Below are positions 11,554-41,434 of a DNA stretch of 64,000 nt, one piece after another. Source of the stretch: a virus; the IMG/VR virus record IMGVR_UViG_3300020048_000003, one strand, 5' to 3'. Each line of letters starts with the position of its first letter. Positions within the stretch are counted from its first letter, which is position 1. A program made the position numbers and the translations under genes. The notes below the pieces were generated by a model. The model was not told the origin of the DNA, searched no databases, and saw only the letters and a list, made by a program, of their open reading frames with translations.

Positions 11554-11922
11554 ATGAAACACTTAAAACTATACGAAAACTTAAACGAACCACAAATAGG
11601 TGATTATGTGCTATGTAGAGAATATCCAAACGAAAAAGAAGATATTCACATGACAGATTTTGAAAGATTTCTTTGTAACCATATAGGTCAAATTGTAGAG
11701 CCAGATGAAAAATATAAAAGAAGTTGGACCAGTAACCGTGAAAGATTAGAATATTATATATGGGTAAAATATTCTAAATCTGATATTAAAAATGATAAAA
11801 ATCTAACAGGTGAGGAATTTGTTAAATATATCAGACCATTTATGAGAAAAGAAATAATACACCATTCAAGAAATAAAGAAGATTTAGAAGGATATTTAAT
11901 AGCAAAAAAGTATAATTTATGA
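11554..11922 (+). CDS. famA protein (subtype with NHIGQI ... NKEDLE)
   Basis: MKHLKLYEN..QIGDYVLC..NHIGQIV..SRNKEDLEGYLIAKKYNL. Confidence 0.85.
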   Translation: MKHLKLYENLNEPQIGDYVLCREYPNEKEDIHMTDFERFLCNHIGQIVEPDEKYKRSWTSNRERLEYYIWVKYSKSDIKNDKNLTGEEFVKYIRPFMRKEIIHHSRNKEDLEGYLIAKKYNL

Positions 11923-12233
11923 AACACTTAAAACATTTTGAATCTATTTTAGATATGCCTGATTTGGATTACTATATGGAATATATTAAAACAAACGAGC
12001 CACAAGTAGATGATTATGTGATATGTAAAATTGACGATGCAATGGAAAAAGAACGTTTATATTTTGAAAATACTATATTACAAATTCAAGGAATTGATTT
12101 TAGAGAAGATTATCCATATAATGTAATTTTAAATAATTTTGAATTTAATCTTAAACGTTCAGAAATAATACACCATTCAAAAAATAAAGAAGATTTAGAA
12201 GTATATTTAACAGCAAAAAAGTATAATTTATAA
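11919..12233 (+). CDS. famA protein
   Basis: MKHLKHFES...VDDYVICK...SKNKEDLEVYLTAKKYNL. Confidence 0.85.
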   Translation: MKHLKHFESILDMPDLDYYMEYIKTNEPQVDDYVICKIDDAMEKERLYFENTILQIQGIDFREDYPYNVILNNFEFNLKRSEIIHHSKNKEDLEVYLTAKKYNL

Positions 12234-13484: not shown

Positions 13485-13751
13485 ATGAAATATATTAAAA
13501 CATACGAATCCGCAACTAAATATAAAATAGGTGACTATGTGGTTGCTGCTTTAGATTTGACAGATCGTAAAAATAATCGTATACCAGGTAAAGAGAAATT
13601 CTTTCAAATTGTTGATTTGGCGGGTGATAAATATTATAGATGTAAATTATTGTTATATACAGAAGAAGATTTACATTATGCAATAGAAGATCAAAACATA
13701 ATTAGAAAAATAGATGAATATGAAATAACAGCAATGCAATATAACTTATGA
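13485..13751 (+). CDS. famA small protein
   Basis: MKYIKTYES..KIGDYVV...DEYEITAMQYNL. Confidence 0.85.
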   Translation: MKYIKTYESATKYKIGDYVVAALDLTDRKNNRIPGKEKFFQIVDLAGDKYYRCKLLLYTEEDLHYAIEDQNIIRKIDEYEITAMQYNL

Positions 13752-14074
13752 AATATATTAAAACATACGAAAAATACGAAGAGCCAAAATATAAAGTAGG
13801 TGATTATGTACTATTAGATTTAGATAAAGTGAATTCTGAATATTTAATAGATACAGATAATGATGGCAATTTTACAATTCCAGCATTAGTATTAATAACT
13901 AAAACACCAACTAAACCTGATCCAACAACAGCAAATTTTAATAGGTATTACGATGTAGAATTTTATATTGGTGGATCTCTTGATATCAGAGAAGAATATA
14001 TTAAAAGATTATTAACACCTGAAGAAATAGATGAATACAAAATAAAAAAAGAGGCAAATAAATATAACTTATGA
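13748..14074 (+). CDS. famA small protein
   Basis: MKYIKTYEKY..KVGDYVL...LTPEEIDEYKIKKEANKYNL. Confidence 0.85.
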   Translation: MKYIKTYEKYEEPKYKVGDYVLLDLDKVNSEYLIDTDNDGNFTIPALVLITKTPTKPDPTTANFNRYYDVEFYIGGSLDIREEYIKRLLTPEEIDEYKIKKEANKYNL

Positions 14075-14418
14075 TTAAAAAAGTAAAACAATATTGGCTC
14101 TTACCAACGGATAAAAGATTTGTTCCAGCATTAAAAAAAATTAATGTCGCACCTAGTTATATAGACATATTAATAGGTAAAACATGTGATGCTACTAGAA
14201 GAAGCGATAAAGTATTTATATCTCATAGCAATAGTGCTGATGCTAATTATGAACCATGTTTTGGATGGGGTTGGATGCCTTACACAAACAAACCAGAAGA
14301 AGAAGATAAGGGAGTAATCACAAATGATTATTATGAAACACAACATTATGAATTCAAAGGAATTGTTGATATTGAAGAACTTGAATTGAAATTAGCAATA
14401 AATAAATATAATTTATGA
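14071..14418 (+). CDS. famA small protein
   Basis: MIKKVKQYW...ELELKLAINKYNL. Confidence 0.75.
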   Translation: MIKKVKQYWLLPTDKRFVPALKKINVAPSYIDILIGKTCDATRRSDKVFISHSNSADANYEPCFGWGWMPYTNKPEEEDKGVITNDYYETQHYEFKGIVDIEELELKLAINKYNL

Positions 14419-14741
14419 AGCATATAAATCCTTACACAGCAAAGAAATTTAACAATTTTTATCCACTTAAAGGTGATAGATTCATAGAAAATGATGATTA
14501 TGTAGTTATTAGGAATCCATATATAAGATTGTTTAAAATAATTGAAATACAATCAAAATCAGGTACTGTTACACCTGTAAAAATAAAAGAAGTTGATACA
14601 ATGACACAAAGAGCATATATGAATGATTATCAGTATATGGGAAAAGATTACATTGAACATTATCTATACAAAACAAAAGATTTAAACGATGCAATTGAGA
14701 ATTTTGAATTCTTATTGGCAATGGATAAATATAACTTATAA
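14415..14741 (+). CDS. famA small protein
   Basis: MKHINPY...LKGDRFI...LAMDKYNL. Confidence 0.75.
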   Translation: MKHINPYTAKKFNNFYPLKGDRFIENDDYVVIRNPYIRLFKIIEIQSKSGTVTPVKIKEVDTMTQRAYMNDYQYMGKDYIEHYLYKTKDLNDAIENFEFLLAMDKYNL

Positions 14742-14744
14742 CCT

Positions 14745-15068
14745 ATGAAGTATATTAAAAAATTTGAAGACGTTGAATCCATATTAGCACAACTAAAACA
14801 TAAAATTGGTGACTATGTTTTACTAAAATTTTATGATCCTATAGCAGAAGTACCTGCTAAAATAATAAATATAACTAATGATGAATTTGCAATTAATATA
14901 TTGAAAATGAATGATTTATATGAGGTTGAAGCATTAGTATATCGTTACGATGAAGAAGAAGAATTGTGTGAATTTTCAGTCAGCGATAAAGATATATCTA
15001 GAAAACTAACACCAGAAGAAATAGAAGACTTTGAAACAAAAAAAGATGCATTAAACTATAACTTATGA
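14745..15068 (+). CDS. famA small protein
   Basis: MKYIKKFED..KIGDYVL...LTPEEIEDFETKKDALNYNL. Confidence 0.85.
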   Translation: MKYIKKFEDVESILAQLKHKIGDYVLLKFYDPIAEVPAKIINITNDEFAINILKMNDLYEVEALVYRYDEEEELCEFSVSDKDISRKLTPEEIEDFETKKDALNYNL

Positions 15069-15328
15069 GACATATTAAACAATATGAAGAATATAAATAT
15101 AAGAAATCACAATTAAAAGTAGGTGATGTTGTTGTCTGCATTAAAGATGCTAATCAAAGTGATTTGAAATTGAATCATAAATATATCATAACTAAAATAT
15201 ATCACGACGATGTTTCAGAATTTTGTAATATTAAAGATATTGATACTGATATAGAATATGATTTTGGTTTTTATACAAATAGATTTATGCCAGAATTAGA
15301 ATACGATATGAAAAAATATAACTTATGA
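15065..15328 (+). CDS. famA small protein
   Basis: MRHIKQYEEY..KVGDVVVC...DMKKYNL. Confidence 0.8.
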   Translation: MRHIKQYEEYKYKKSQLKVGDVVVCIKDANQSDLKLNHKYIITKIYHDDVSEFCNIKDIDTDIEYDFGFYTNRFMPELEYDMKKYNL

Positions 15329-15660
15329 AATATATTAAAGAATATGAAACTATTGAAAACCAATTAAATGATGGTGATTATGTAATATGTTATTATGATA
15401 AATTAGCAAGATATGCCTACCATGCTGAATTAACTGATGAATTAAAAGAATTTATAAATAATAATGTAGGTAGAATAAATATAGTATCTAGAGTACAATA
15501 TACATGGATTGATGTGAGTTATGAAAATATTCCCTATAATTTAATGAATAAGTTTAGTGATATTAATTCAATCTTATTAACTAAAGATGCCGTAGTTGAT
15601 ACATCACCAGATAAAGAAGAACTTGAAGTAAAATTATCAGCAAATAAATATAATCTATGA
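15325..15660 (+). CDS. famA small protein
   Basis: MKYIKEYETI..DGDYVIC...NNVGRI...KEELEVKLSANKYNL. Confidence 0.85.
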   Translation: MKYIKEYETIENQLNDGDYVICYYDKLARYAYHAELTDELKEFINNNVGRINIVSRVQYTWIDVSYENIPYNLMNKFSDINSILLTKDAVVDTSPDKEELEVKLSANKYNL

Positions 15661-15965
15661 AATATTTAAAATTGTACGAATCTAATTATAATATCTTGGA
15701 CTATGTAATTGTTTATGAAGAGACTGTTAATCCACTCAGAGATAGAATTGTTAATAGTGCAATAGGTCAGCTAATTAAACCTGATAAAGATGTTGTAGAA
15801 CAATGGAGCAACACTTTTGATTATTATGTTAAATTTGAAAATATACCTGAAATAAGTGGATTTTATGATGGAATTAGACCATTTAATGAGGCTGAAATTG
15901 TTTTTTCTAATCCTGATAAAGAAGTAGTTGAAGCCTATCTCTTAGCAAAAAAATATAATCTATAA
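15657..15965 (+). CDS. famA small protein
   Basis: MKYLKLYES...SAIGQLI...PDKEVVEAYLLAKKYNL. Confidence 0.85.
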   Translation: MKYLKLYESNYNILDYVIVYEETVNPLRDRIVNSAIGQLIKPDKDVVEQWSNTFDYYVKFENIPEISGFYDGIRPFNEAEIVFSNPDKEVVEAYLLAKKYNL

Positions 15966-16315
15966 TGAAATATATCAAACAATATGAAGATAATGACGAT
16001 ATAAAAAATCCATTAAAAATCGGTGTTTATGTGTTATGTGAAAGCCCTCCTGAAGATGATGATATTGATAATACATTAAGAGAATATATGAAAAACCATA
16101 TTGGATATATTATAGGTCATCATATGCACAAAAATAAAAAATTATTATATCATGTCAAATACGAAGGTCTAACAAAAGATAATTATGAAAATGATTATTC
16201 ACTAGTAGAGGACACAGATGATCAACTTTTAGTATGGAGAGATGAAATTAAACATTGGTCCAAAAATAGAGAGGATTTAGAAGTTTTACTATCAGCAAAT
16301 AAATATAATCTCTAA
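15965..16315 (+). CDS. famA small protein
   Basis: MKYIKQYED..KIGVYVLC..NHIGYII...SKNREDLEVLLSANKYNL. Confidence 0.85.
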   Translation: MKYIKQYEDNDDIKNPLKIGVYVLCESPPEDDDIDNTLREYMKNHIGYIIGHHMHKNKKLLYHVKYEGLTKDNYENDYSLVEDTDDQLLVWRDEIKHWSKNREDLEVLLSANKYNL

Positions 16316-16333
16316 ACAAAAAAATATAACCCT

Positions 16334-16666
16334 ATGAAGACACTTAAAACATATGAAGGATTTCAAGATATTATAAACTCTTGGCACGCTATTAATAATA
16401 TTAATAAAAATAAAAAAACAACCGAGCCAAATATAGAAATATATGATGGTGAAGATAAAGATTTAAGAAATTTTATAATGGATATAGTTGATTCAGAATA
16501 TCCAAGTTATGAAGATATGAATCATGATGAACGCAGTACTCTTATATACAAAGTTATTAAAGAACATATAAAAGATTTTGCACGATACGCTAATAAACAA
16601 CCAGACGAAATTGAACAATGGGTATATGGATTCCTTTGGGACTATATTGTAAATGAAGAAGGCTAA
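16334..16666 (+). CDS. famA-like N-terminus, no KYNL tail
   Basis: MKTLKTYEGF start; ends IVNEEG. Confidence 0.55.
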   Translation: MKTLKTYEGFQDIINSWHAINNINKNKKTTEPNIEIYDGEDKDLRNFIMDIVDSEYPSYEDMNHDERSTLIYKVIKEHIKDFARYANKQPDEIEQWVYGFLWDYIVNEEG

Positions 16667-16668
16667 TT

Positions 16669-17121
16669 ATGAAATATATTAAACAATACGAAACAAAAAT
16701 TACACAAAAATCCTTACTAGAAGTTATATCAAACTTTTTGAATAAAGCATTGCCTAATAATTTTTCTATTAAACTATACCAAGATACAATAAATATAAAA
16801 GATACAAATATTAAAACAAATAAAAATATAGGATTCATATACATATTAGGAACACAAAAAACAAAATTTAAAATACAATTGAGTTGCAGAACTTTAGAAG
16901 GTTCAAATATAAATATCGCAATGGAATATATAATAAATGAACTAAATAATAATATTCCAATAGATGAAGAAGGTAGAGAAGAAGATTCTAGTTGGTTATA
17001 TAACTTACATTATAATATCACTTTCAACCCAAAATACTTTGAAAATGTTATTACCTTATTTAATACATTACCAATAGAAGATTTATCCATTATAATGAGT
17101 GCTGAAAAATATAACCTATAA
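16669..17121 (+). CDS. famA protein
   Basis: MKYIKQYET...LSIIMSAEKYNL. Confidence 0.8.
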   Translation: MKYIKQYETKITQKSLLEVISNFLNKALPNNFSIKLYQDTINIKDTNIKTNKNIGFIYILGTQKTKFKIQLSCRTLEGSNINIAMEYIINELNNNIPIDEEGREEDSSWLYNLHYNITFNPKYFENVITLFNTLPIEDLSIIMSAEKYNL

Positions 17122-17475
17122 ATGAAACATATTAAGCAATATCCTCCTAAAAAATACATTCCTAAACCAAATGAACCACACGAAGGTGATTACGTACTTT
17201 GTACAAGAAAAAGTACAACAACAACGTTCTTAGACTTCATAGAAAATCATATAGGTCAAATTTTAAATATTGTTTTAGCACATACATATACATTTCAAAC
17301 AGATAAAGATAATAAACCACTATATACTGTACAATACTTTGATTATAATATTACATCTAGCACAAGCCCAGGTGTACTACCAAGAGTAAATTGCAATAGA
17401 GAAGAAATTATACACTTCTCACCTAATAGAGAAGACTTAGAAGTTATACTTTCAGCAAATAAATATAATCTATGA
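17122..17475 (+). CDS. famA protein
   Basis: MKHIKQY..HEGDYVLC..NHIGQIL..SPNREDLEVILSANKYNL. Confidence 0.85.
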   Translation: MKHIKQYPPKKYIPKPNEPHEGDYVLCTRKSTTTTFLDFIENHIGQILNIVLAHTYTFQTDKDNKPLYTVQYFDYNITSSTSPGVLPRVNCNREEIIHFSPNREDLEVILSANKYNL

Positions 17476-17753
17476 AATATATAAAATTATACGAAGATTC
17501 TACCACACCACAAATTGGACAATACGCTGCCGGCTACTCTGAAACTGCACTTGAACCAGAAAAATCTTTACTACCTACATTAGTTGGTAAAATTACAGAT
17601 ATTGATCAAAGAGGTTTTTATGTTATTACTTATCCACTAGTAATTTATTATAAAACAAGTTGGTGGTATTTTCGTAAAGATCAAATTCTTGCATTTGGTG
17701 ATACAGAAGAAGAAGTAGAATTTAAAATTACAGCAAATAAATATAATCTATAA
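17472..17753 (+). CDS. famA small protein
   Basis: MKYIKLYED..QIGQYA...EEVEFKITANKYNL. Confidence 0.8.
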   Translation: MKYIKLYEDSTTPQIGQYAAGYSETALEPEKSLLPTLVGKITDIDQRGFYVITYPLVIYYKTSWWYFRKDQILAFGDTEEEVEFKITANKYNL

Positions 17754-17770
17754 AAAATAATAAATACAGT

Positions 17771-17923
17771 ATGAAAATAAAAAACTTTAATGACTTTATT
17801 ATTACTGAAAAGAAAAAAGTCGCACCAAAAGGTGTTTGTTGGAAAGGTTACGAAATGGTAGGAATGAAAGAAAAAGATGGTAAAAAAGTACCTAATTGTG
17901 TACCAAAAAAAGAAAAGAAATAA
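17771..17923 (+). CDS. small Cys-containing Lys-rich protein (50 aa), not in ORF track
   Basis: MKIKNFNDFIITEKKKVAPKGVCWKGYEMVGMKEKDGKKVPNCVPKKEKK translated manually; sits between famA genes. Confidence 0.4.
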   Translation: MKIKNFNDFIITEKKKVAPKGVCWKGYEMVGMKEKDGKKVPNCVPKKEKK

Positions 17924-17926
17924 CCT

Positions 17927-18205
17927 TTGAAATATATTAAAGAATACGAAGCTTATTATGATGATTGGACTAAACCTAAAAAATATAAAAAAGGTGACTA
18001 TGTCCGAGATATAACTTCTTCTCAAGATACTATTTATATTATACTCAATACAATAGATCACGGTGATGGTGCTGGATTTCCAGGTTCTAAAACTGGCTAT
18101 CATTATTTGATAGAAACCTCAGATGGTATACCATTTTGGAAAGCAGAAGATGATTTAAAACCACTCTCTGATTTAGAAATAGCCGCAATAAAATATAATA
18201 TCTAA
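17927..18205 (+). CDS. famA small protein with TTG in the conserved start position
   Basis: TTGAAATATATTAAAGAATACGAA -> (M)KYIKEYEAYY...LEIAAIKYNI. Confidence 0.6.
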   Translation: MKYIKEYEAYYDDWTKPKKYKKGDYVRDITSSQDTIYIILNTIDHGDGAGFPGSKTGYHYLIETSDGIPFWKAEDDLKPLSDLEIAAIKYNI

Positions 18206-18206
18206 T

Positions 18207-18437
18207 ATGAAAATAAAGAAATTAAACGAATTATACGAAGAAACTACTTCAGTACATAGTGCAGAATTTTATGATTTAATGCAAGAATATAGATTTACAC
18301 CACCCCGTGACCAAAAAATGACAATTAAATCATACGAAAATGTTAAAGATTTTATAGAAAAAAACTATATCTTAAAAGATATACCAACCATTAAACAATG
18401 GCTACTAGAACAAGACGCAAATAAATATAATCTATGA
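18207..18437 (+). CDS. famA small protein
   Basis: MKIKKLNELYEE...LEQDANKYNL. Confidence 0.75.
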   Translation: MKIKKLNELYEETTSVHSAEFYDLMQEYRFTPPRDQKMTIKSYENVKDFIEKNYILKDIPTIKQWLLEQDANKYNL

Positions 18438-18730
18438 GATATATTAAAACATTTGAAAACTTAAATGAAAATGAACCAAAAGTTGGTGATTATGTTATTA
18501 TACAACAAGATGCTGTACTGGATCCATATAAAATCTGGCAAATAAAAGAAATAATTCCAAAAGAACACTTTCGAACATCTAATCCATATAATTACACTTT
18601 AAGATATGAAAGATGGGAAAATGATAGAAATTGGAAACAAATACAAGTTAGTAGAGATTACATTAAATATTGGTCAAATAATAAAGAAGACTTGAAAAAT
18701 ATAATAGAAATACAAAAATATAACCTATGA
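18434..18730 (+). CDS. famA small protein
   Basis: MRYIKTFEN..KVGDYVI...NKEDLKNIIEIQKYNL. Confidence 0.85.
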   Translation: MRYIKTFENLNENEPKVGDYVIIQQDAVLDPYKIWQIKEIIPKEHFRTSNPYNYTLRYERWENDRNWKQIQVSRDYIKYWSNNKEDLKNIIEIQKYNL

Positions 18731-19092
18731 AATATATAAATCAATACGAAGCAGTTACACCACAACCAAGAATCGGTGATTACGTGTTGTGTGAACTTGA
18801 TCCCATTGTTAATGACCAAGATAAAAAACTTATTAACTTCGTAGAAAACAATATTGGAGTAATTATAGAAAGAAAATTAACCAAATCATCATTTGGAGAA
18901 TATAATAGAAAAAAATTCTTCTACTCAATAGAATATGAAAATATGCGAGCAGGTAGAGATTATGATAGTACATACTCAATGAAAGATGGAACAACTAATG
19001 TAATCCTAGTGTTTAGAACAGAAATTCAATACTTCTCAAATAATAGAGAAGATATAGAAGCAATATTAACAGCAAAAAAATATAACCTATGA
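18727..19092 (+). CDS. famA protein
   Basis: MKYINQYEA..RIGDYVLC..NNIGVII..SNNREDIEAILTAKKYNL. Confidence 0.85.
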   Translation: MKYINQYEAVTPQPRIGDYVLCELDPIVNDQDKKLINFVENNIGVIIERKLTKSSFGEYNRKKFFYSIEYENMRAGRDYDSTYSMKDGTTNVILVFRTEIQYFSNNREDIEAILTAKKYNL

Positions 19093-19466
19093 TAAAAACT
19101 TACGAAGGCTTTTTTGATAGATTTAAAAAGAAACCTAAACCAGTTCAAATACAAGGTGAATATTGGTTCATTTCAAGCAATAGTCCAAACTATATGAAAT
19201 TGGCTTTTATTAAAATAAGCGAAGTTTTAGCAAAACAAGTTCCATATCAATTAGATAGTATAAATAAATTAGAACAACTATTTCAAATTCTTTTGAATGA
19301 TCACGTAAATAGTAGTTCATTGACAAGTTTTTACCTTGCATTAGATTACTACACAAAACATTGGACATATAGCGCAGGCTCATATCCATTTGAAAGACTC
19401 TATAAATTCAATGGAGAAATTATAGTAGACGACTTTGAACTAGACGCAGAAAAATATAACCTATAA
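19089..19466 (+). CDS. famA protein
   Basis: MIKTYEGFF...FELDAEKYNL. Confidence 0.75.
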   Translation: MIKTYEGFFDRFKKKPKPVQIQGEYWFISSNSPNYMKLAFIKISEVLAKQVPYQLDSINKLEQLFQILLNDHVNSSSLTSFYLALDYYTKHWTYSAGSYPFERLYKFNGEIIVDDFELDAEKYNL

Positions 19467-19774
19467 TGAAATCATATAAATTATTTACAGAATCTATAAG
19501 ATATATTAATATTAACAAGGGTGACTATGTTAAAATTAAAACTTCTATTTATAGCGATGCTGAAAAAGAAAAAATATTCAAAGTAATTGGAAAATACTAT
19601 GACGATGGCTGCAGCGATGCAGAAGATGGTGGTAAAGAAAATCTTTTTACCTTAATTAATGCAATTGATACTGATGAAAAACAAACACTTCATAAAGACC
19701 ACCTTAGAAAATTAACAAAGAAAGAACTAGAAAAATTTGAATTAGAACAATCAGCAAATAGATATAACCTCTAA
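19466..19774 (+). CDS. famA small protein
   Basis: MKSYKLFTES..KGDYVKI...LTKKELEKFELEQSANRYNL; 3' end overlaps convergent famB by 4 nt. Confidence 0.8.
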   Translation: MKSYKLFTESIRYININKGDYVKIKTSIYSDAEKEKIFKVIGKYYDDGCSDAEDGGKENLFTLINAIDTDEKQTLHKDHLRKLTKKELEKFELEQSANRYNL

Positions 19775-20082
19775 ATATCTTCATAAATTTTCTTTAACTT
19801 ATTATACCTTATTAAACCACCTACCGTACCCATATACTTACCCAAATTATCATTGTTTTCATAGTTTACTATAAATAAACACCAACCTTGAGAAGTTTTG
19901 CTAAACTCACCATCATCATAAGTTAATAATACCTTTACATTACTCCTTCCAAAATTGTACTTGAGATAATTTAATAACCATTCCTTATACCCTATATCAG
20001 CCTTTGCAGGTATTATATATGTGTCCACAACTTGATTGATTAAATGTAATTCATTAAACCTTAATACCCAATACTTTTTCAT
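19771..20082 (-). CDS. famB-like protein
   Basis: C-term LIRYNKLKKIYEDI. Confidence 0.55.
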   Translation of the reverse strand: MKKYWVLRFNELHLINQVVDTYIIPAKADIGYKEWLLNYLKYNFGRSNVKVLLTYDDGEFSKTSQGWCLFIVNYENNDNLGKYMGTVGGLIRYNKLKKIYEDI

Positions 20083-20088
20083 AACAGT

Positions 20089-20394
20089 TTACCAAAATCT
20101 AAACCAACTAACTTTCTTTAACCTCTTTAACTTCTTGACCCTCTCTTGCTTAAGTGTAAGTTTAGGCTTAGATGATCTAACAATAACTAAATTCTCGTCA
20201 CTACCAAGATCCATTAATAAAAAAATTAAAAGAATCAATATATTTATAGGTCCCGCAATAGATATAACAGACGCAAATATGTAATCTTGCCTGTCCAATT
20301 CATTATCCATCAACCTGTTTAATATCATAATAGAACCAAACAAACCAACCAATAACCAAAATATTAAAAGAATTATCATAAGAAAAATAATCAT
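20089..20394 (-). CDS. membrane protein with famB-like basic tail
   Basis: 2 TM (IIFLMIILLIFWLLVGLFG / ISIAGPINILILLIFLL) + KQERVKKLKRLKKV. Confidence 0.55.
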   Translation of the reverse strand: MIIFLMIILLIFWLLVGLFGSIMILNRLMDNELDRQDYIFASVISIAGPINILILLIFLLMDLGSDENLVIVRSSKPKLTLKQERVKKLKRLKKVSWFRFW

Positions 20395-20657
20395 AACATT
20401 GCCTCTTTTATAGTTTTTAACTTCATTCTCCGCATCTCCTGAATATCATAAAAATATTCATAAAAATAATTAATTCCAGGATTGTATATAAGTGAAAATG
20501 ATTTAGGTTTACCTTTAAACCTTATAAACTCACAAGTTATAGGACTATCACTTATAATACCTATATCCTCTATTATATAATAATTACCCTTATTATATAA
20601 TACATAATTACCACCAGTATAATCCTCCTTACATAAAATTCTATCACCTACTTTCAT
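20391..20657 (-). CDS. famB small protein
   Basis: MKVGDRILCKED...IQEMRRMKLKTIKEAML. Confidence 0.8.
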   Translation of the reverse strand: MKVGDRILCKEDYTGGNYVLYNKGNYYIIEDIGIISDSPITCEFIRFKGKPKSFSLIYNPGINYFYEYFYDIQEMRRMKLKTIKEAML

Positions 20658-20895
20658 ATATCTCCTTTAACTTTCTTTTACGATACTCCTTCAAACTTAT
20701 AAACCTACAAGAATAATAATGCCTCTCCTCACCATTATCATCACATAAATAATACCTCTCATAAAACTTACCACTTCCATGCTCAAAATCTTCCTTTAAT
20801 ATACTATATACCTTGCCATACGTTAAATTTACAGAAGTATTAAACCAAGATTCATCTATATCACTCACATCTATACATACTACCTTAGTCAACAT
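20644..20895 (-). CDS. famB small protein
   Basis: VVCIDVSD..LTYGKVY...RFISLKEYRKRKLKEI. Confidence 0.85.
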   Translation of the reverse strand: MLTKVVCIDVSDIDESWFNTSVNLTYGKVYSILKEDFEHGSGKFYERYYLCDDNGEERHYYSCRFISLKEYRKRKLKEIYESR

Positions 20896-21115
20896 AACTA
20901 TATAATCTTTTTAATTTCTCTTTCCGATACTCCCTTAAACTTATAAACCTACGAGAATAATACCGCCTTTTCTCACCCGTATCATCACACAAATAAAATC
21001 CACCTTCATCTTCACCAGTTAATAAGATATATACCTTACCTACTGTTAAATTTATAGAACCCTTAACAGGATCTATCTTATCTGCATTTACACACACCAC
21101 TTTATTCATTAACAA
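20885..21115 (-). CDS. famB small protein
   Basis: VVCVNADK..LTVGKVY...RFISLREYRKEKLKRL. Confidence 0.85.
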   Translation of the reverse strand: MLMNKVVCVNADKIDPVKGSINLTVGKVYILLTGEDEGGFYLCDDTGEKRRYYSRRFISLREYRKEKLKRLYSYVD

Positions 21116-21362
21116 TCTTTTTTAACTTTATTCTTCTACTCTCACTTAACGATACAAAATACTCAGACTCATAACCAGCATTATGATTATTATCATTTAT
21201 AATCCATATTCTCAACCTCATACCACTATTATGAATATGTGACTGAAGTACAATATATACCTTACCCTCAGTCAAATCATTAGAACTAACCTTAGATACA
21301 ACACGATTACCAGTACTGAACTCCTTCTTCTTACTATCCGTTACCTTATCATACAGACCCAT
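21102..21362 (-). CDS. famB small protein
   Basis: LTEGKVYIV...SLSESRRIKLKKIVNE. Confidence 0.75.
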   Translation of the reverse strand: MGLYDKVTDSKKKEFSTGNRVVSKVSSNDLTEGKVYIVLQSHIHNSGMRLRIWIINDNNHNAGYESEYFVSLSESRRIKLKKIVNE

Positions 21363-21690
21363 AACTATTCAACTTTTTTAATTTGTCCCTCCTTCTATCA
21401 GCAATACTTATTATATCAAAATATTTAAAAATATCATCACAACGAAAAATAATAAATTCATTCTTATCATCAATTATATCACACTTCCAATAATAACTCC
21501 TACTAGAACCAAAAGATTTATCATAACATACAGCAACACTACCAATACTATACTCCTTACCAATAGTAAAATGCCAACGCCTTAACCTTTTCGGTGCCTT
21601 CTCATTTCCCACCTGTAAAAAAGCAACATACCTATCACGCTTACATATAATAGGTGTGTTCCTCATTGATAAATACTCATACAGATCCAT
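21349..21690 (-). CDS. famB protein
   Basis: FTIGKEYSI...IADRRRDKLKKLNSY. Confidence 0.7.
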   Translation of the reverse strand: MDLYEYLSMRNTPIICKRDRYVAFLQVGNEKAPKRLRRWHFTIGKEYSIGSVAVCYDKSFGSSRSYYWKCDIIDDKNEFIIFRCDDIFKYFDIISIADRRRDKLKKLNSYGSV

Positions 21691-21934
21691 TCTCTATCTC
21701 CTTTAACTTTCTCTTACGATACTCCTTTATTGTTATAAACCTTTTTTCACTATACTGCCGAACTTGTTTCACATCATTTTCCATTTCATAAAAATAACAA
21801 CCATCATATTCCATATCAACAATAACATATAACTTGTCCAAAGTTAAAAAACAAGACTTATCAACACCATAAGCACCAAACTTACCATTATTAATACATA
21901 TAACCTTATCACCGATTTTTATATTATCCCTCAT
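21677..21934 (-). CDS. famB small protein
   Basis: IKIGDKVICINN...RFITIKEYRKRKLKEIENG. Confidence 0.85.
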   Translation of the reverse strand: MRDNIKIGDKVICINNGKFGAYGVDKSCFLTLDKLYVIVDMEYDGCYFYEMENDVKQVRQYSEKRFITIKEYRKRKLKEIENGSV

Positions 21935-22208
21935 TTAACCTCCGTAACTTTAACCTCCTTATAAATAATATACTACTTACAATTTCATAATCACTTGTAT
22001 CTATATGAATATAATTATTCGCCTTATACCGAGAAACCTTACCCAAAGCCTCAATAGTATCATTCCTAATCCTTAAAGCACAATTTTCATAATCACTCTC
22101 CCTTAATTCTCCACACCTATCACGCCAATCTATATCCATAGAAAATAATACCAATTGAACATTCCTAAACTCCTTCGCATTACTACAACATATTATAACA
22201 TTATTCAT
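21924..22208 (-). CDS. famB-like small protein
   Basis: C-term LFIRRLKLRRLNEG. Confidence 0.6.
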   Translation of the reverse strand: MNNVIICCSNAKEFRNVQLVLFSMDIDWRDRCGELRESDYENCALRIRNDTIEALGKVSRYKANNYIHIDTSDYEIVSSILFIRRLKLRRLNEG

Positions 22209-22476
22209 ATAACCTCCGTAACTTTAACATTCGCATTAACTTTATATCATCCGTCTCCCAACCTTCACAATTACCTTCCTCCTCACTCTTGAAAACATTA
22301 TACTTCTTACTACATGATGTATAATAATCTGAACCATCATGAAACTTACAAGAATAACACTTCTTATTCATAGGATTAAAACAACACCTTGTCTCATGCA
22401 CAACTACTTTCATACTTGAAATATCAGTATGACTACAAAAATCACATTTCCAAACTCTCTTCATCTGTGTCCACAT
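22201..22476 (-). CDS. Cys-rich (zinc-binding type) famB protein
   Basis: WKCDFCSH...RCCFNP..KKCYSCKF...NCEGW...LMRMLKLRRLYE; paralog of 63581..63877. Confidence 0.7.
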   Translation of the reverse strand: MWTQMKRVWKCDFCSHTDISSMKVVVHETRCCFNPMNKKCYSCKFHDGSDYYTSCSKKYNVFKSEEEGNCEGWETDDIKLMRMLKLRRLYE

Positions 22477-22657
22477 TTAACTTATCCAACTTATACTTCC
22501 TAACATCCTTAATATTATATTCAATACAATCTATCTGTTCATCATTATTAACACTACAAGTACCAGACCAACACATAACATCCTTATCATGTTGTACCCG
22601 ATGTGGACATTCTGTAACATCACACTCCAATCCCCTTGAACATATCATTTTTTCCAT
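22442..22657 (-). CDS. Cys-rich famB small protein
   Basis: CSRGLECDVTECPH...CWSGTC...IKDVRKYKLDKLN. Confidence 0.7.
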   Translation of the reverse strand: MEKMICSRGLECDVTECPHRVQHDKDVMCWSGTCSVNNDEQIDCIEYNIKDVRKYKLDKLNVDTDEESLEM

Positions 22658-22881
22658 TCTCCTTTTAATTTATTTAACTTATACTTCCGTGCCTCCTTCA
22701 AACTCATAAACCTATAAGCATAAAAATAATTGGTAAATATAACACCATTCTTCGCAATATCCACCATCTTACGCTTTTCTCCATCAAAAACACCAACAAC
22801 ATCATATACACCACCTATATCTAAATCATTCTCCTTATAAGTATTATCCTTACAAATTATTTTATCACCTACATTAAACAT
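22645..22881 (-). CDS. famB small protein
   Basis: MFNVGDKIICKDN...FMSLKEARKYKLNKLKG. Confidence 0.85.
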   Translation of the reverse strand: MFNVGDKIICKDNTYKENDLDIGGVYDVVGVFDGEKRKMVDIAKNGVIFTNYFYAYRFMSLKEARKYKLNKLKGEWKK

Positions 22882-22893
22882 AACACATTACTA

Positions 22894-23112
22894 TTAAAGA
22901 CGACTTACAATCTTTTCCAATTTTAACCTCCTATACTCTTTAAGTTCTATGAAAAAACTCCGAGGATATGCAAAATACTCTCCAATATCATTCAACACAA
23001 CTATCCTATCATCCGTATATTTCCACTTATTCCTCCTATTATAATCAATTTCATATACCCTTCCAATAGTTATGAAAATCTGACCCTTACTATTTATACA
23101 TATCACTCTCAT
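22894..23112 (-). CDS. famB small protein
   Basis: MRVICINSKG..ITIGRVYEI...ELKEYRRLKLEKIVSRL. Confidence 0.85.
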   Translation of the reverse strand: MRVICINSKGQIFITIGRVYEIDYNRRNKWKYTDDRIVVLNDIGEYFAYPRSFFIELKEYRRLKLEKIVSRL

Positions 23113-23312
23113 ATTCTTTCTAATTGAAGTTTATCTAATTTCTTCTTACGCTCATCCCTTATACTATATTTAACACACTTTATATTCATATCATGAACAC
23201 CACAAATACCATGTAAACAATCCCTATAAGTTTCTATATGCGGCTTAATATGTGGACACTCCACCTTTTTACAACCTTCAGCCATTGAACATACCATCAC
23301 TATTTCTGTCAT
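23109..23312 (-). CDS. Cys-rich famB small protein
   Basis: CSMAEGCKKVECPH...CLHGICGVH...IRDERKKKLDKLQ. Confidence 0.7.
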   Translation of the reverse strand: MTEIVMVCSMAEGCKKVECPHIKPHIETYRDCLHGICGVHDMNIKCVKYSIRDERKKKLDKLQLERI

Positions 23313-23313
23313 A

Positions 23314-23502
23314 TTATTCTCTCCAACTATCTAAATTTTCTAATTTCTTTTTACGAACCTCCTTTAATGAAATAAACCTCCAAGCATAATAACCATTAAT
23401 GAAAACTCCACCACTATAATCCTCAATTATATAAATCTTATTCTCCTCCAGTACCTTAGTACTACGAGCATCAATACAAATAACCCTATCTCCTATCTTC
23501 AT
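23314..23502 (-). CDS. famB small protein
   Basis: MKIGDRVICIDAR...RFISLKEVRKKKLENL. Confidence 0.85.
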   Translation of the reverse strand: MKIGDRVICIDARSTKVLEENKIYIIEDYSGGVFINGYYAWRFISLKEVRKKKLENLDSWRE

Positions 23503-23753
23503 ATCTCCGGTTCTATTAAAGACGACTTATTAATTTTTTCCAACTTTAACCTCCGATACTCACTCTCAGTAGCAAAATAACAACAATCGTAAGAAAATAT
23601 ATCACCACTATTATTCTCAATCAGATAATGAGTTAATTTCTTATTATTAATATTATGAATTTGAAATCCATCATCATCATAAAATAAAACAGTATACCAC
23701 TTTCCAGGTGTTATCCAAGTATGCTGACCCTTATCTACACATAATATCTTCAT
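23499..23753 (-). CDS. famB small protein
   Basis: MKILCVDKG...ESEYRRLKLEKINKSSLIEPEI. Confidence 0.8.
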   Translation of the reverse strand: MKILCVDKGQHTWITPGKWYTVLFYDDDGFQIHNINNKKLTHYLIENNSGDIFSYDCCYFATESEYRRLKLEKINKSSLIEPEI

Positions 23754-23983
23754 AACTCCGGTTCTATTAAAGACGACCTATTTATTCTTTCCAATTTCTT
23801 ACGACGATACTCCTTTAATGTAACAAAATGCCGATCAGCATAACAAAATCGTGACCCCATATCATTAATAATCCAATACTCCTTGAAAATCCTCTGAGAA
23901 ATACAAGCCACAACCTCATACTTTCTACCAACAGTTATAAAACTCTGCTCACCTCTATTTATACAAACTACCTTCAAATTCAT
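23750..23983 (-). CDS. famB small protein
   Basis: VVCINRGEQSFITVGRKYEV...LKEYRRKKLERINRSSLIEPEL. Confidence 0.85.
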   Translation of the reverse strand: MNLKVVCINRGEQSFITVGRKYEVVACISQRIFKEYWIINDMGSRFCYADRHFVTLKEYRRKKLERINRSSLIEPEL

Positions 23984-24210
23984 AACTCACTCTTATTTCT
24001 TAACTCCAACAACTTTAACCTACGATACTCCTTATTATTGTTAAATAACTTCATAGGATAACTAAAACTAAATCCCATATCATTAAAAACTAAATACTCA
24101 CCATAAGTAGAAGATAACTCACAATCATACAACTTACCAACAGTTAATAAAAAATATCCACAATACTCTCCATTACGAATATTATTCTTCTCAATACATA
24201 TTAACCTCAT
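23980..24210 (-). CDS. famB small protein
   Basis: MRLICIEKN...LTVGKLY...NKEYRRLKLLEL. Confidence 0.85.
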   Translation of the reverse strand: MRLICIEKNNIRNGEYCGYFLLTVGKLYDCELSSTYGEYLVFNDMGFSFSYPMKLFNNNKEYRRLKLLELRNKSEL

Positions 24211-24433
24211 ATTTCATCCTTATCTTGTTTAACTTTTCACTCCTTTCATCCTTTATATCCATAAAACATTCAGCCTCATATGGTCCACAAAAACCATCAT
24301 CATTATTTATTCTGTAATATATACAACCATCATAAGAACGATAAGAATCATGTACAAAATACCGCCTACCAACAGTTATAAAATTATAATCAAAAGCATT
24401 TATACATATTAAATAATCACCAACCTTTTTCAT
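24191..24433 (-). CDS. famB small protein
   Basis: KKVGDYLICINA..ITVGRRY...IKDERSEKLNKI. Confidence 0.8.
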   Translation of the reverse strand: MKKVGDYLICINAFDYNFITVGRRYFVHDSYRSYDGCIYYRINNDDGFCGPYEAECFMDIKDERSEKLNKIRMKYEVNMY

Positions 24434-24678
24434 AACTCCATAATTATTTTTAACTTCTTCTTCCTTATATCCCGAACCTTCTCAAACCTCCAACTATAAT
24501 AACCATTAATGTAAAATTCTCCATCATAATCACCAAGATAACTTAACTTCTCTATAATATATACACGACCCAGCTTTAACTCCATAACATTAGCAGCAGG
24601 ATGCTTGTCATTAATACATACAACCCTATCACCTAATTTGAAATTATTAATACTTGATACCCTATTCTCCATTATCAT
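24430..24678 (-). CDS. famB small protein
   Basis: FKLGDRVVCIND...KVRDIRKKKLKII. Confidence 0.85.
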   Translation of the reverse strand: MIMENRVSSINNFKLGDRVVCINDKHPAANVMELKLGRVYIIEKLSYLGDYDGEFYINGYYSWRFEKVRDIRKKKLKIIMEL

Positions 24679-24914
24679 ACCGTTTCTATTAGAGACGACC
24701 TACTTATTCTTTCCAATTTCTTACGACGATACTCCCGAACATCCTCAAACCGCCAAGTAAAATAACCATTGATATATGTATCACCATCAGGCGAATAACT
24801 ATAATCCTCAACCTCCTTTATAATATAAATTTTACCAATAGTTAAATAGTTCTCAACCATCGCATTATCTATACATACTACCCTATCACCTACTTTACAA
24901 TCTAATATATTCAT
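24675..24914 (-). CDS. famB small protein
   Basis: CKVGDRVVCIDN..LTIGKIY...DVREYRRKKLERISRSSLIETV. Confidence 0.85.
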   Translation of the reverse strand: MNILDCKVGDRVVCIDNAMVENYLTIGKIYIIKEVEDYSYSPDGDTYINGYFTWRFEDVREYRRKKLERISRSSLIETV

Positions 24915-24923
24915 ATATTCATA

Positions 24924-25181
24924 CTACCACCTATTATTAATCTTTTCCAATTTACGCTTACGATAATCCCTCAAACTTATAAACCTATTCTCATAATAAC
25001 CATTTACATAATATTCATCTGACCGAGCAGTCCTACCATACTCAACCACATAAACTTGATTAAGAACTAAACAATCCTCTACTCCAAAATTATCTATACA
25101 TACAACCCTCTCACCCTCATTATACTTACAAGAGTTCTTATTCTTAGAACTCACTGCCGAATCACTCAAATACCTACCCAT
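24924..25181 (-). CDS. famB small protein
   Basis: EGERVVCIDN...RFISLRDYRKRKLEKINNRW. Confidence 0.85.
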   Translation of the reverse strand: MGRYLSDSAVSSKNKNSCKYNEGERVVCIDNFGVEDCLVLNQVYVVEYGRTARSDEYYVNGYYENRFISLRDYRKRKLEKINNRW

Positions 25182-25416
25182 TAAAGACGACCTCCCCCAA
25201 TTTCCTTAATTTCAAACAACGACTCTTCTTCTCCTCCATCACATATGGCTCCGTATACCAACTCTTATTACCATAATCATCTACTATTAAAAACCTCACA
25301 CTTCCCCACTCATCTACCCTCTGTGTATTAGGCAAAATATTTAACACCTCATAACTCTTTCCAATAGTTAATCCCATATAATCACCAAAATATGTCTTTA
25401 CAAATATTACCCTCAT
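25174..25416 (-). CDS. famB small protein
   Basis: MRVIFVKTY..LTIGKSYEV...KKSRCLKLRKLGE. Confidence 0.75.
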   Translation of the reverse strand: MRVIFVKTYFGDYMGLTIGKSYEVLNILPNTQRVDEWGSVRFLIVDDYGNKSWYTEPYVMEEKKSRCLKLRKLGEVVFNG

Positions 25417-25511
25417 TCCCCAAAGATAAAAATAATTACCAATATAAAAAAATATCCACTCAAAATTTAATATAAAATTTTAATATATAAAGAAAAATAA
25501 TCATATCACAC

Positions 25512-25712
25512 ATGAAAAACTTTGAAGAATATCAACAAACAAAAGAACAAACAAACGAATCAGTTACTCCCGGTAACCTTTATAGAGATATGAACCAACA
25601 ATTTACACAACTATTACAAACAGTCTGCGATAAATACCAAATAACAAACGAAGAAGCATCACAAGTTATAGCCGATTACTTTACATCTAAACAATGGAAC
25701 GTTACAGCATAA
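25512..25712 (+). CDS. hypothetical small protein
   Basis: 66-aa ORF after divergent intergenic region; followed by terminator. Confidence 0.45.
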   Translation: MKNFEEYQQTKEQTNESVTPGNLYRDMNQQFTQLLQTVCDKYQITNEEASQVIADYFTSKQWNVTA

Positions 25713-25868
25713 AAACATTAACAAAAAAATACCAAAATGTTCAGAAATACCACCTAAAATTTATTATATCTATCACAAAATTGTGTCAAAAAGTGGAGAA
25801 AAGTGGTAAAAAGTGGCGAAAAATGGAGGTAAAAAGATAACACTATAAGAATAAACACTTTAAGAAAA

Positions 25869-25901
25869 CCTGGATAACCGACGACTATCCAGGTATTTTT
25901 T
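25869..25901 (+). terminator. rho-independent terminator
   Basis: CCTGGATAaccgacgacTATCCAGG + TATTTTTTT. Confidence 0.65.
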
Positions 25902-26047
25902 TAGGATCCTAAAATAAGCCTCTGTATCACTCTCCAATACAGCATCCTATTCTCCTGACCCCGAGATACTTACAAAGTTCTTAATCTTTTGATAATGAAC
26001 AAGTTGCGACTGACAAAAAGTCACATGCCAAAGTATAAAAAAGGAGT

Positions 26048-29296: not shown

Positions 29297-29388
29297 ATTG
29301 TGGTGTGGGATTCGAACCCACGCGCCAGTGATTAACTGACCTGTTTGTTTTCAAGACAAATCTCTTACAACCGCTTGAGTAATCTTCC
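29297..29388 (-). tRNA. tRNA-Ser(UGA)-like: D-arm, anticodon arm (CU-UGA-AA), long variable arm and T-arm (GGTTCGAATCC) intact, 3' acceptor strand does not pair (possible pseudo-tRNA or junction)
   Basis: revcomp GGAAGATTACTCAAGCGGTTGTAAGAGATTTGTCTTGAAAACAAACAGGTCAGTTAATCACTGGCGCGTGGGTTCGAATCCCAC then ACCACAAT instead of ATCTTCC-N-CCA. Confidence 0.5.
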
Positions 29389-29536: not shown

Positions 29537-30295
29537 TTATAATTGTGATGTATTAATAGGTAGATTAAATGAAAAAGTACTACCCTTCTTTATTTTACTA
29601 CTAATTTGTAGTGTTCCGCCATTTAATTTTATGAAACTTTTACACAACTTCAATCCCAATCCGCTTCCCTTTTCTGCATTTGTTCCAAACGTTGTATAAA
29701 ATTCGTTATCAGATAAAATTCTATCAATATTATCTTGACTAATACCAATTCCATTATCCGATATTTCAATTTTTATAAACTCATTGTCAGTTGTCATGTT
29801 AATACTAATCTTACCGTTTTTATTTGTAAATTTTATGGCATTAGATAATAAATTTCTAACTACAGATTCTATCATTATTTTATCAGCGTATGCTGTGAAT
29901 ACTCCAGAATAGTTTTTTTCTACTGTAATATTTTTCTCAATAAATCTATAATCTAAAATCATAAATTTTTTATCAATTATTTCGTTTAGATTAATTATGA
30001 CAGGATTATATGAAAGTGCATTTTTATTATGTGTTGCCCACTGTAATAGATTTTCTAACAACTCAAATGTACGTTTAGACAAGTCTTTTATAAAACCCAA
30101 GTATTGATATAATTCAGATTCAGTTACATCATCCTTTTCTGCAATTAATTCAGATATTTGCATTATACTACCTATCGGACCTCGTAAGTCATGCCCAATA
30201 ATGGCTAAAATAGTATCCTTTGTCTCATTTAATACACGAAACTGTTCAAGAGATTCTTCTAAATCGTTACATCGGCAACCCGATTTTCTTTCCAT
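29537..30295 (-). CDS. histidine kinase core (HisKA + HATPase_c), no sensor/TM domain
   Basis: H-box IIGHDLRGPIGSI; N-box LLSNAIKFT; G1 DNGIGIS; G2 GSGLGLKLCKSFI. Confidence 0.8.
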   Translation of the reverse strand: MERKSGCRCNDLEESLEQFRVLNETKDTILAIIGHDLRGPIGSIMQISELIAEKDDVTESELYQYLGFIKDLSKRTFELLENLLQWATHNKNALSYNPVIINLNEIIDKKFMILDYRFIEKNITVEKNYSGVFTAYADKIMIESVVRNLLSNAIKFTNKNGKISINMTTDNEFIKIEISDNGIGISQDNIDRILSDNEFYTTFGTNAEKGSGLGLKLCKSFIKLNGGTLQISSKIKKGSTFSFNLPINTSQL

Positions 30296-33263: not shown

Positions 33264-33518
33264 TTAAATTTCGTCTTTAATTGATAGGTCTTTAATATGT
33301 TGTAATTTTTGTTTTCTAAGTTCTTGTATGGTGTAGAAGAAGTAGTTTATTTCAAGTTCGGTAAAAGAGTAATTGTAGTACCAATCATTTCTATCGTCTT
33401 TAATTGGTATTATCCAGTCGTAGGGATTTATGTTTGATTTATTGGTATATTTAAAAGCCAGGTAATATTCGTTTTCAACAATATACTGGTTTATTCTTTT
33501 TTTACAAAGTAGTTTCAT
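33264..33518 (-). CDS. famB small protein
   Basis: FFYTIQELRKQKLQHIKDLSIKDEI. Confidence 0.8.
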   Translation of the reverse strand: MKLLCKKRINQYIVENEYYLAFKYTNKSNINPYDWIIPIKDDRNDWYYNYSFTELEINYFFYTIQELRKQKLQHIKDLSIKDEI

Positions 33519-33912
33519 GTTGTATTTGTTGTAATTTTTTTAATCTAAGGTATTTAGTTCTATTATATACTTCTTTTACAATTATTTCGTTATTTATATA
33601 TTGTGATAGTTTTATTATTTTGATATGTTCATTTTCTTTAACGGTTGATACTACTTCAAGTAATTCAGTTAGATCTTCTTTTTTTTCTAGTGAGCCGCCG
33701 ACTCCACCTGTTGAACTTTTTGCGTGGTAGTAACCGTAGGGGTTAGCGATAAGAGTTTCTTTGAATTCGTTATCTTCTTCACTTCTATAGTAACTATGGT
33801 AGTAGCCACAGTTATAACATATTGTAAATTCTTCACCTGATTTATAATAGTAATCATTATATGCTTCGTGGTGGCAATTAGGGCATTCTATATAATCTAT
33901 TACGCTTCCCAT
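33502..33912 (-). CDS. zinc-ribbon protein with famB-like tail
   Basis: CPNCHH...CYNCGYYH; C-term TKYLRLKKLQQI. Confidence 0.6.
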   Translation of the reverse strand: MGSVIDYIECPNCHHEAYNDYYYKSGEEFTICYNCGYYHSYYRSEEDNEFKETLIANPYGYYHAKSSTGGVGGSLEKKEDLTELLEVVSTVKENEHIKIIKLSQYINNEIIVKEVYNRTKYLRLKKLQQIQHETTL

Positions 33913-35505: not shown

Positions 35506-35712
35506 TTATGGTTTAATTTCGTCTTTAATGGATAAGTTATTTATTTTTTGTTTTCTTATTAGTTTAATATTAAATGGTATGCAGGGTTGTATATTTTCGT
35601 GATATTTACAAATACCGCTATCACAATTTATTTCTCTCATATGTGGTTTTTTATGTGGACATATTTTGCTTTTACAATTTAAGTCTGGACAAATGAGGTT
35701 ATTTTCTTTCAT
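35506..35712 (-). CDS. Cys-rich famB small protein
   Basis: CPDLNCKSKICPH...CDSGICKYH...IRKQKINNLSIKDEI. Confidence 0.75.
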   Translation of the reverse strand: MKENNLICPDLNCKSKICPHKKPHMREINCDSGICKYHENIQPCIPFNIKLIRKQKINNLSIKDEIKP

Positions 35713-38936: not shown

Positions 38937-38938
38937 GA

Positions 38939-39298: not shown

Positions 39299-39300
39299 AA

Positions 39301-40004: not shown

Positions 40005-40005
40005 A

Positions 40006-40751: not shown

Positions 40752-40753
40752 AT

Positions 40754-41140: not shown

Positions 41141-41166
41141 GATGAAGTATATAAAAAAATAAAAAT

Positions 41167-41433: not shown

Positions 41434-41434
41434 G

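Follow-up and report, generated by a model that had tools for sequence, protein, structure and literature searches.

Two kinds of Cys-rich head among many small proteins with a common C-terminal tail in a low-GC jumbo phage

In Bacillus phage G, zinc-ribbon proteins have undergone a lineage-specific expansion to about 35 members (Iyer et al. 2021, PMC7824862). Here we analyzed a stretch of 64,000 nucleotides (the window) of the IMG/VR virus record IMGVR_UViG_3300020048_000003, which belongs to a jumbo phage genome with 25% GC and a length of 287 kb or more, with the small Cys-rich genes at 22201-23312 as the starting point; these genes share a short basic C-terminal peptide (the tail), attached to otherwise different N-terminal parts (the heads). 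Compared by description, both systems are jumbo phages with a large set of small, functionally uncharacterized Cys-rich proteins, but whereas phage G expanded one homologous zinc-ribbon domain, here it is the tail that repeats, and the Cys-rich heads are few and of at least two unrelated kinds. A variable recognition domain combined with a constant C-terminal docking motif is known from the poxvirus ankyrin/PRANC (F-box-like) proteins and in the adaptor SspB with its ClpX-binding C-terminal peptide. By analogy of mechanism, and with no claim of membership, the locus resembles these in that a single short C-terminal element would anchor many different heads to one hub; unlike them, it has a basic, putatively helical tail of about 17 residues with no sequence relationship to either motif, and its heads are much smaller as well as more varied.

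No description of this tail or of these families was found in the full-text literature, and a family defined by such a tail (a predicted helix of about 17 residues on unrelated heads, covering nearly half of 64 kb) was found neither there nor in Pfam or PHROGs. The Cys-rich heads are of a known kind, small zinc-finger proteins, but belong to uncurated families, and the main value of their genes is that they give the clearest evidence for a modular tail. On balance we lean modestly towards reading the tail as a lineage-specific peptide module of low-GC jumbo phages, most likely a docking or targeting helix.

A constant tail on many heads

The tail was searched as R..K[LI]..[LIVM] within 25 aa of the C-terminus, with K or R accepted at the first position. 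It closes 92 of the 197 small genes called in the window, as compared with 1.1 ± 1.1 (maximum 5) in 200 residue shuffles. Nearly all occurrences of the motif in the window (92 of 95) lie within 15 aa of the C-terminus, and the first position is R in all 92 although K was allowed. The extended consensus, F-x-[TS]-[IL]-[KQ]-E-h-R-K-x-K-L-x-K-[LI]-N-E, spans about 17 residues and is exemplified by the peptide SLKEYRKRKLEKINE. The proteins that carry it are about 55-160 aa long, follow the scheme of any head plus one tail, and account for nearly half of the window's genes.

To compare the heads, the tails of the 92 proteins were trimmed and the remainders were clustered by BLAST and iterated hidden Markov models (HMMs). 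About 40 heads are SH3-like (GDxVxCI), five belong to a Cys/His-rich type termed CPH, two to a type termed WKCDFC after its N-terminal motif, and four share the motif 'LFxxGYxW'; the remaining heads form a few pairs or triplets, and about 41 are without a detectable relative. Tailed proteins with transmembrane heads are encoded at 3593, 20089, 37552 and 62709. Head-only hhalign probabilities among the WKCDFC, CPH and SH3-like sets were 1.0%, 0.4% and 0.1%. Against Pfam, none of the 92 tailed proteins gave a match at E ≤ 1e-3, and against PHROG there were only scattered single matches, six of the seven matched families being of unknown function. The first-pass annotation, which assigned these genes to a family called famB, had proposed a variable head plus a constant tail, and this is borne out, since unrelated head types bear the tail and the WKCDFC head mostly occurs without it elsewhere. 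Its further statement that the family mixes at least two unrelated cores is right in that several unrelated cores exist, but the head types are far more numerous than that, and only about 9 of the 92 tailed proteins have Cys-rich heads. We hold this anatomy, and the modularity of head and tail, with high confidence.

The invariant Arg of the tail is encoded by AGA in 56 cases, CGT in 19, AGG in nine, CGG in five and CGA in two, while the codons of the tail Lys and Leu residues match genome-wide usage. Since AGR as well as CGN codons serve for the invariant Arg, conservation operates at the amino-acid level: the tail is conserved as a peptide, not as DNA. The codon data bear directly on an alternative in which the tail is a by-product of a nucleotide element, either an A-rich initiation or coupling region or a short-homology joint for the duplication or exchange of cassettes, and the peptide itself is functionless. 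In keeping with this alternative, 24 of 90 junctions have the downstream ATG at 25 nt past the first base of the invariant Arg codon, where it is made by AAT-GAA (Asn-Glu; for example at 21102-21115), and most of the remaining downstream starts fall 28-40 nt after that codon, which places most starts at 25-40 nt; the tails of neighboring genes resemble each other slightly more than do tails in general (64% versus 57%); fusions with two tails exist; and in an array on another contig (L032) the bases coding for the ICSKL end of a variant tail also encode, in another frame, the N-terminus MFQVGD of the next gene. However, apart from the alternation of AGR and CGN and the genome-wide synonymous usage, the Leu/Ile positions vary at first and third bases yet stay hydrophobic. 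Compared in register, the DNA encoding the tails shows only 57% identity; shared runs typically measure 6-9 nt, with 20 nt or more shared in just 21 of 4186 pairs, and the motif is intact in array-end genes that have no downstream gene. In addition, 68 genes of a second family in the window, ending in KYNL, show coupling just as tight although their 3' end is completely different, indicating that the phage needs no tail sequence for coupling. We therefore regard a functionless by-product as very unlikely.

The best conserved tail positions, numbered from the invariant Arg as 0, are -7, -4, -3, 0, 3, 4 and 7, which fall within one 120-degree arc (300-60 degrees) of a helical wheel. The tail is predicted to form a helix, with its conserved residues on one face.

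Cys-rich heads of unrelated types

The first-pass annotation had paired the genes at 22201-22476 (minus strand) and 63581-63877 (plus strand), and the two are indeed paralogs, with 49% identity over 90 aa in BLASTP (E 1e-28) and a common WKCDFCS...NP..KKCYSC...NCEGW; a distance of 41 kb separates them, and they sit on opposite strands, each within an array of small tail-bearing genes. That they are close paralogs did not hold, as head-only distances put each copy as near to homologs from other contigs (P0004 and P0008) as to its partner. The open reading frame at 22201-22476 encodes 91 aa, but the gene likely starts at the second Met (22464, giving 87 aa), because the N-termini of homologs read MK.VWKC and an 87-aa gene is called on a near-identical contig. 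Its putative metal ligands are C11, C14, H27 and C31 followed by C40, C43, C55 and C70, and its tail LMRMLKLRRLYE is encoded at 22204-22239. The second paralog, for which an open reading frame, a BLASTP match and an AlphaFold2 (AF2) model are available, has 98 aa, with the corresponding residues C9, C12, H25 and C29 followed by C38, C41, C52 and C73, and its predicted tail helix (residues 81-97) is encoded at 63821-63871. Both paralogs keep every invariant column of an alignment of 126 family members; both have the eight ligand columns, with NP following the fourth ligand and W following the last Cys.

An exhaustive profile search identified 444 cluster representatives of the WKCDFC family at E ≤ 1e-3, proteins of about 75 aa, which makes it a widespread, uncurated family with no Pfam entry. 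The best 152 of the 444 were ranked, and tailed members were favored in this ranking because the search profile contained the tail; nevertheless, 117 of these 152 are tail-less (median 79 aa, ending just past the last Cys-x-x-W) and only 35 are tailed (median 91 aa). With 117 of the 152 best matches lacking a tail, head and tail are separable. Other arrangements were also found: in one homolog (L004, on a contig of 38% GC) the WKCDFC domain is N-terminal in a tail-less protein of 156 aa with a different Cys-rich C-terminal part, and another homolog (P0026) continues for about 80 residues past a tail-like segment. In a weak neighbor-joining tree of the heads (72 columns), tailed members are scattered among tail-less ones. 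The WKCDFC tails have a flavor of their own, with a hydrophobic residue at +2 (RKLKL, RKVKL), and this is kept across phages, pointing to long co-inheritance of this head with its tail.

In the 126-sequence alignment, C9, C12, H25, C29, C38, C41 and C73 are invariant and C52, E26, N32 and P33 nearly so, which gives a spacing of C-x2-C-x12-H-x3-C plus C-x2-C...C...C, that is, a C2HC set and a C4 set with eight ligands in total. The AF2 model of the 63581 protein, built from this alignment, has a mean predicted local distance difference test score of 89.7, with strands at residues 7-8 and 15-16, a helix at 19-28 and the tail helix at 81-97. As modeled, the residues up to ~28 make up a C2HC finger of the classical type, having both the C-x2-4-C-x12-H-x3-5-[HC] spacing and the beta-beta-alpha fold. 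In Foldseek, this finger superposes locally on the fingers of ZFY, CTCF and MYST proteins at 0.7-1.2 Å over 21-27 residues. Among described domains, residues ~6-29 (C-x2-C-x12-H-x3-C in a predicted beta-hairpin plus helix) resemble the C2H2/C2HC fingers and especially that of MYST acetyltransferases (zf-MYST, PF17772; PDB 1m36 and 6ba2). The scores are marginal, though: the family profile matched the MOZ C2HC finger weakly (E 0.01), zf-MYST matched 4 of the 126 members at E ≤ 0.01 (best 8.1e-5, with none shown at the curated score), and the two window proteins matched no Pfam zinc-finger model even at E ≤ 1. Unlike the MYST finger, moreover, the WKCDFC domain is a stand-alone phage mini-protein. 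The label zinc ribbon, as given in the first-pass annotation, appears unsupported as such, the N-terminal module being a classical C2HC finger by the model. The whole domain probably binds two zincs, one at the C2HC site and a second through the other four Cys.

As a whole, the domain has no match in the PDB, every Foldseek E-value there being 0.28 or higher. In BFVD it matches three uncharacterized phage proteins with template modeling scores of 0.51-0.65, a Foldseek probability of 1.00 and 20-26% identity, namely A0A2I7R6C4 (79 aa), A0A2I7QNC4 (100 aa) and A0A7G5B9N2 (Ralstonia phage Eline, 78 aa). These proteins are sized like the tail-less WKCDFC members; the E-values are only 1.5e-3 to 1.8e-2, and the proteins are unnamed and without an assigned function.

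The other Cys-rich open reading frames listed in the first-pass annotation (22442, 23109, 35506, 35699, 55046, 60142 and 60848) all exist, contain 7-10% Cys as compared with 1.6% in the window proteome, and end in the basic tail; together with the two WKCDFC genes, all nine close with R-[KR]-x-K-[LI]-x-x-[LIVM] preceded by F-x-[TS]-x-[KQ]-E-h, which occurs twice in 60142. The pattern C-x2-C...C-P-H ascribed to them needed correction: a literal C-P-H occurs in 22442, 23109 and 35506 only, and the real pattern is C-x5-C-x4-C-x-H-x3-H...C...C...C. An alignment of six CPH sequences refines it to C-x5-C-x4-C-x-H-x3-H...C-x2-4-C...C, again with eight putative ligands.

Five window genes carry CPH-type heads. 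On the minus strand, that at 22442-22657 encodes 71 aa and belongs to a BLAST cluster of four and an HMM cluster of five, and in the alignment it has the invariant C, C, C, H, H, C, C and C; that at 23109-23312 encodes 67 aa, may start at the second Met, and has a homolog (P0155) 97% identical to it. The adjoining minus-strand genes at 35506-35712 (68 aa) and 35699-35887 (62 aa), placed here by clustering and alignment, end in the K-I tail variants RKQKINNL and RKDKITIL, respectively. The fifth, on the plus strand at 55046-55270 (74 aa), is a divergent member that the CPH HMM picked up; the loop preceding its second Cys cluster is longer, but all eight ligand columns are kept. Seven CPH proteins were found among 5.8 billion, and all seven are tailed; four of them are identical or near-identical copies of the window's own genes, and one lies on a different low-GC contig (L028). 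Profiles of the CPH and SH3-like heads gave only chance-level matches against the PDB.

That all of these Cys-rich proteins form one homologous zinc-ribbon subfamily diverged inside famB, as first proposed, appears attractive since they are all small, have 7-10% Cys, eight potential ligands and a common tail, and some are adjacent (22201/22442 and 35506/35699). The comparison of WKCDFC with CPH does not bear this out. With tails included, hhalign gives a probability of 44%, the tail being the aligned part; with heads only, it drops to 1.0% over 10 columns, and homology was detected through the tail but not beyond it, which is the outcome that the first-pass annotation itself had named as refuting its subfamily. 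The ligand spacings differ (C-x2-C-x12-H-x3-C plus C-x2-C...C...C against C-x5-C-x4-C-x-H-x3-H...C...C...C), neither family's HMM recruits the other, the WKCDFC HMM picking up none of the seven genes named above, and the distributions are very different, with 444 clusters for WKCDFC and seven proteins for CPH. A single subfamily is therefore the least credible of the explanations we considered, and WKCDFC and CPH are independent mini-domains, each probably binding zinc, with no detectable mutual relation.

The remaining Cys-containing heads are related to neither family or have degenerated. The 121-aa protein encoded at 60848-61213 (plus strand), which had been counted as a member of the subfamily, has seven Cys and the tail but fits neither WKCDFC nor CPH and stays alone in both BLAST and HMM clustering. 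The first-pass annotation did not include another Cys-containing head, which is encoded at 33502-33912 (minus strand; 136 aa, ECPNC...ICYNC, tail variant RLKKLQQI); its CxxC...CxxC has zinc-ribbon-like spacing and is separate from both families. At 60142-60366 (plus strand), as read from the sequence, a degenerate head with C-x5-C-x4-C only is followed by two tails, IRKQKLEKLNE and then FYDYFYIEQELRKEKLEKLNEV, whose two 30-nt coding stretches differ at one base. A homolog elsewhere (P0170) likewise has two consecutive tails. The double tail of 60142 appears to have arisen when the gene fused in frame with a neighbor's 3' remnant, and such fusions suggest a possible route by which heads acquire the tail. 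Between the Cys-rich genes at the 22-23 kb locus lie two minus-strand genes (22645-22881 and 22894-23112) with SH3-like heads (GDxVxCI / VICIN...G.VY) and the tail.

Distribution and genomic setting

Word-indexed protein searches returned few relatives (3, 7 and 28). With a degenerate DNA pattern of the tail, 24 IMG/VR loci at 19-29% GC were recovered, on contigs of up to 330 kb, with many further head types and arrays of up to 14 tailed genes in ~12 kb. An NCBI contig of 248.7 kb (GCA_043956695.1, JBINOA010003474.1; L032 7464-14663) carries an array with a variant tail, R-R-x-K-L-E-K-I-x-S-K-[IL], observed as RRxKLEKI(C/R/K)SK(L/I). For WKCDFC homologs, the presence of the tail follows the contig: tailed homologs lie on contigs with 21-27% GC and with genes for further tailed proteins (the window, L003, L030 and L034), and tail-less ones on contigs of 33-38% GC without any tailed open reading frame (L004, L035 and L036). 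This sequence comparison suggests that the tail is a property of the phage lineage rather than of the head.

Another tailed protein, encoded at 62709-63146 in the window, 1053-1487 in L030 and 2981-3334 in L010, has a domain 'YV.E.D.F.NG.S.I...W.. SEN' conserved in several low-GC contigs. The copies of the window and L030 have an N-terminal transmembrane segment, and that of L030 adjoins a WKCDFC gene. Its conservation across contigs, and its place beside a WKCDFC gene in L030, point to some head-tail combinations being old and syntenic.

Window proteins are also recorded on a contig of 286,618 bp, and near-identical copies occur on contigs of 209 kb and smaller. Among deposited phage genomes (50,697 records), megablast with 20 kb of the window and tblastn with two WKCDFC proteins gave no match, and tblastn with the histidine kinase of the window gave distant matches only (<40% identity); the source is a jumbo phage without a close relative among deposited phage genomes. 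The window has a GC content of 23-33% and is 94% coding, and its genes form same-strand blocks with overlapping starts and stops. A eukaryotic virus with the tail as a nuclear localization signal was considered, as the tail resembles K-R-x-K-L, and was rejected in view of the operon-like blocks, the start/stop overlaps of 4-20 nt and the phage-type neighbors. An integron-like cassette array was likewise rejected, there being no intergenic recombination site because the window genes overlap.

Among the genes checked, only three matched Pfam: a soluble HisKA/HATPase_c histidine kinase (29537-30295, minus strand), a GIY-YIG plus NUMOD homing endonuclease (61467-62342, plus strand) and a cold-shock-domain protein (62411-62611, plus strand). 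A gene with a cREC_REC receiver domain lies just past the window end on a near-identical contig (L001). Rfam identified a tRNA at 29301-29388 on the minus strand (36 bits, gathering score 29), which was not called by ARAGORN; it sits in a stretch of ~25.4-29.5 kb with the lowest gene density and the highest GC (30-33%) of the window.

The second C-terminal family comprises 68 window genes of ~85-185 aa that end exactly in K-Y-N-[LIM]-stop after an acidic segment such as ...EDLE..L.A.KYNL. They are located on the plus strand at 292-3453, 7726-8728, 11554-12233, 13485-19774 and 37908-52646, and their stop usually overlaps the next ATG (TTATGA; a gap of -4 in 29 cases). Together, the KYNL and basic-tail families make up 160 of the 197 window genes, each family being defined by its C-terminus. 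An extreme GC skew tracks the coding strand, from about -0.55 to -0.61 in the minus-strand famB block (20000-26000) and from +0.33 to +0.57 in the plus-strand KYNL block (38000-52000).

Possible roles of the tail

In the reading that we prefer, the tail would be a helix for protein docking or targeting through which many different small heads, binders or effectors, reach the same phage or host component, the invariant face of R, K, L and L/I contacting one common partner outside the protein. An external partner is the most likely one because the same R/K/L/L face is kept on heads that have no common packing surface. The arrays would grow via tandem duplication and in-frame fusion to the 3' end of a neighbor. 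This docking mechanism we put forward tentatively, with less assurance than the lineage-specific module as a whole.

The tail could instead be a generic basic helix that binds nucleic acids, with the family consisting of small DNA- or RNA-binding proteins (transcription-factor-like, nucleoid or structural); the zinc-finger and SH3-like heads would then give specificity, and the tail would add non-specific affinity for the phosphate backbone. The tail is certainly rich in Arg and Lys (R0, K1, K3 and K6), WKCDFC begins with a predicted C2HC finger of the classical kind, a fold for which nucleic-acid binding is common, and the zinc-ribbon expansion of phage G was taken by Iyer et al. (2021, PMC7824862) to comprise possible transcription factors or DNA-binding proteins with a structural role. 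Yet the two Leu/Ile positions match the basic ones in conservation and share their face, which backbone binding would not require; several tailed proteins have transmembrane heads (those at 3593, 20089, 37552 and 62709 mentioned above); and no head matches a known DNA-binding Pfam family. A nucleic-acid-binding helix is thus a plausible match for the zinc-finger heads, but the transmembrane heads and the conserved leucines fit it less well, and as an account of the whole family we consider it rather unlikely.

Several points weigh against the docking helix. Positions 0, 3, 4 and 7 of the tail were fixed by the search pattern, which makes the one-face argument partly circular, and the WKCDFC tail, with its own flavor at +2, may pack on its own head instead of an outside partner. 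The tracking of the tail with the phage lineage rests on four tailed and three tail-less contigs, some of them shorter than 4 kb, and the head-only tree of 72 columns is weak. As the tail-coding stretch lies directly upstream of the next start, some RNA-level constraint is superimposed, although such a nucleotide constraint cannot explain the amino-acid pattern of the tail. Finally, docking by the tail is deduced from its conservation, and zinc binding of the heads likewise from that of the ligands only.

A bolder version of the docking helix, which we think unlikely as it stands, is that the tail serves as the address tag of a clade of low-GC jumbo phages, delivering at least 90 unrelated small proteins per 64 kb to one machine. 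As the target one could think of the virion, with packaging and co-injection of the tagged proteins, of a compartment that the phage builds, or of a host hub (a protease, chaperone or polymerase, for instance). This would amount to a phage effector-tagging system comparable to secretion signals, in which the zinc-finger heads are two of many cargo or effector types.

Jumbo phage genomes consist mostly of unannotated small genes, and in this window 160 of 197 reduce to two families that are each defined by a short C-terminal peptide. The WKCDFC head adds direct evidence of the tail as a separable module added to a pre-existing domain; with 444 cluster representatives and no Pfam entry, this domain, predicted to be a zinc finger of the classical type in phages, merits curation. 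If the tail is a docking or sorting signal, it would be a portable experimental tag, and a single partner would explain at least 100 orphan genes per genome.

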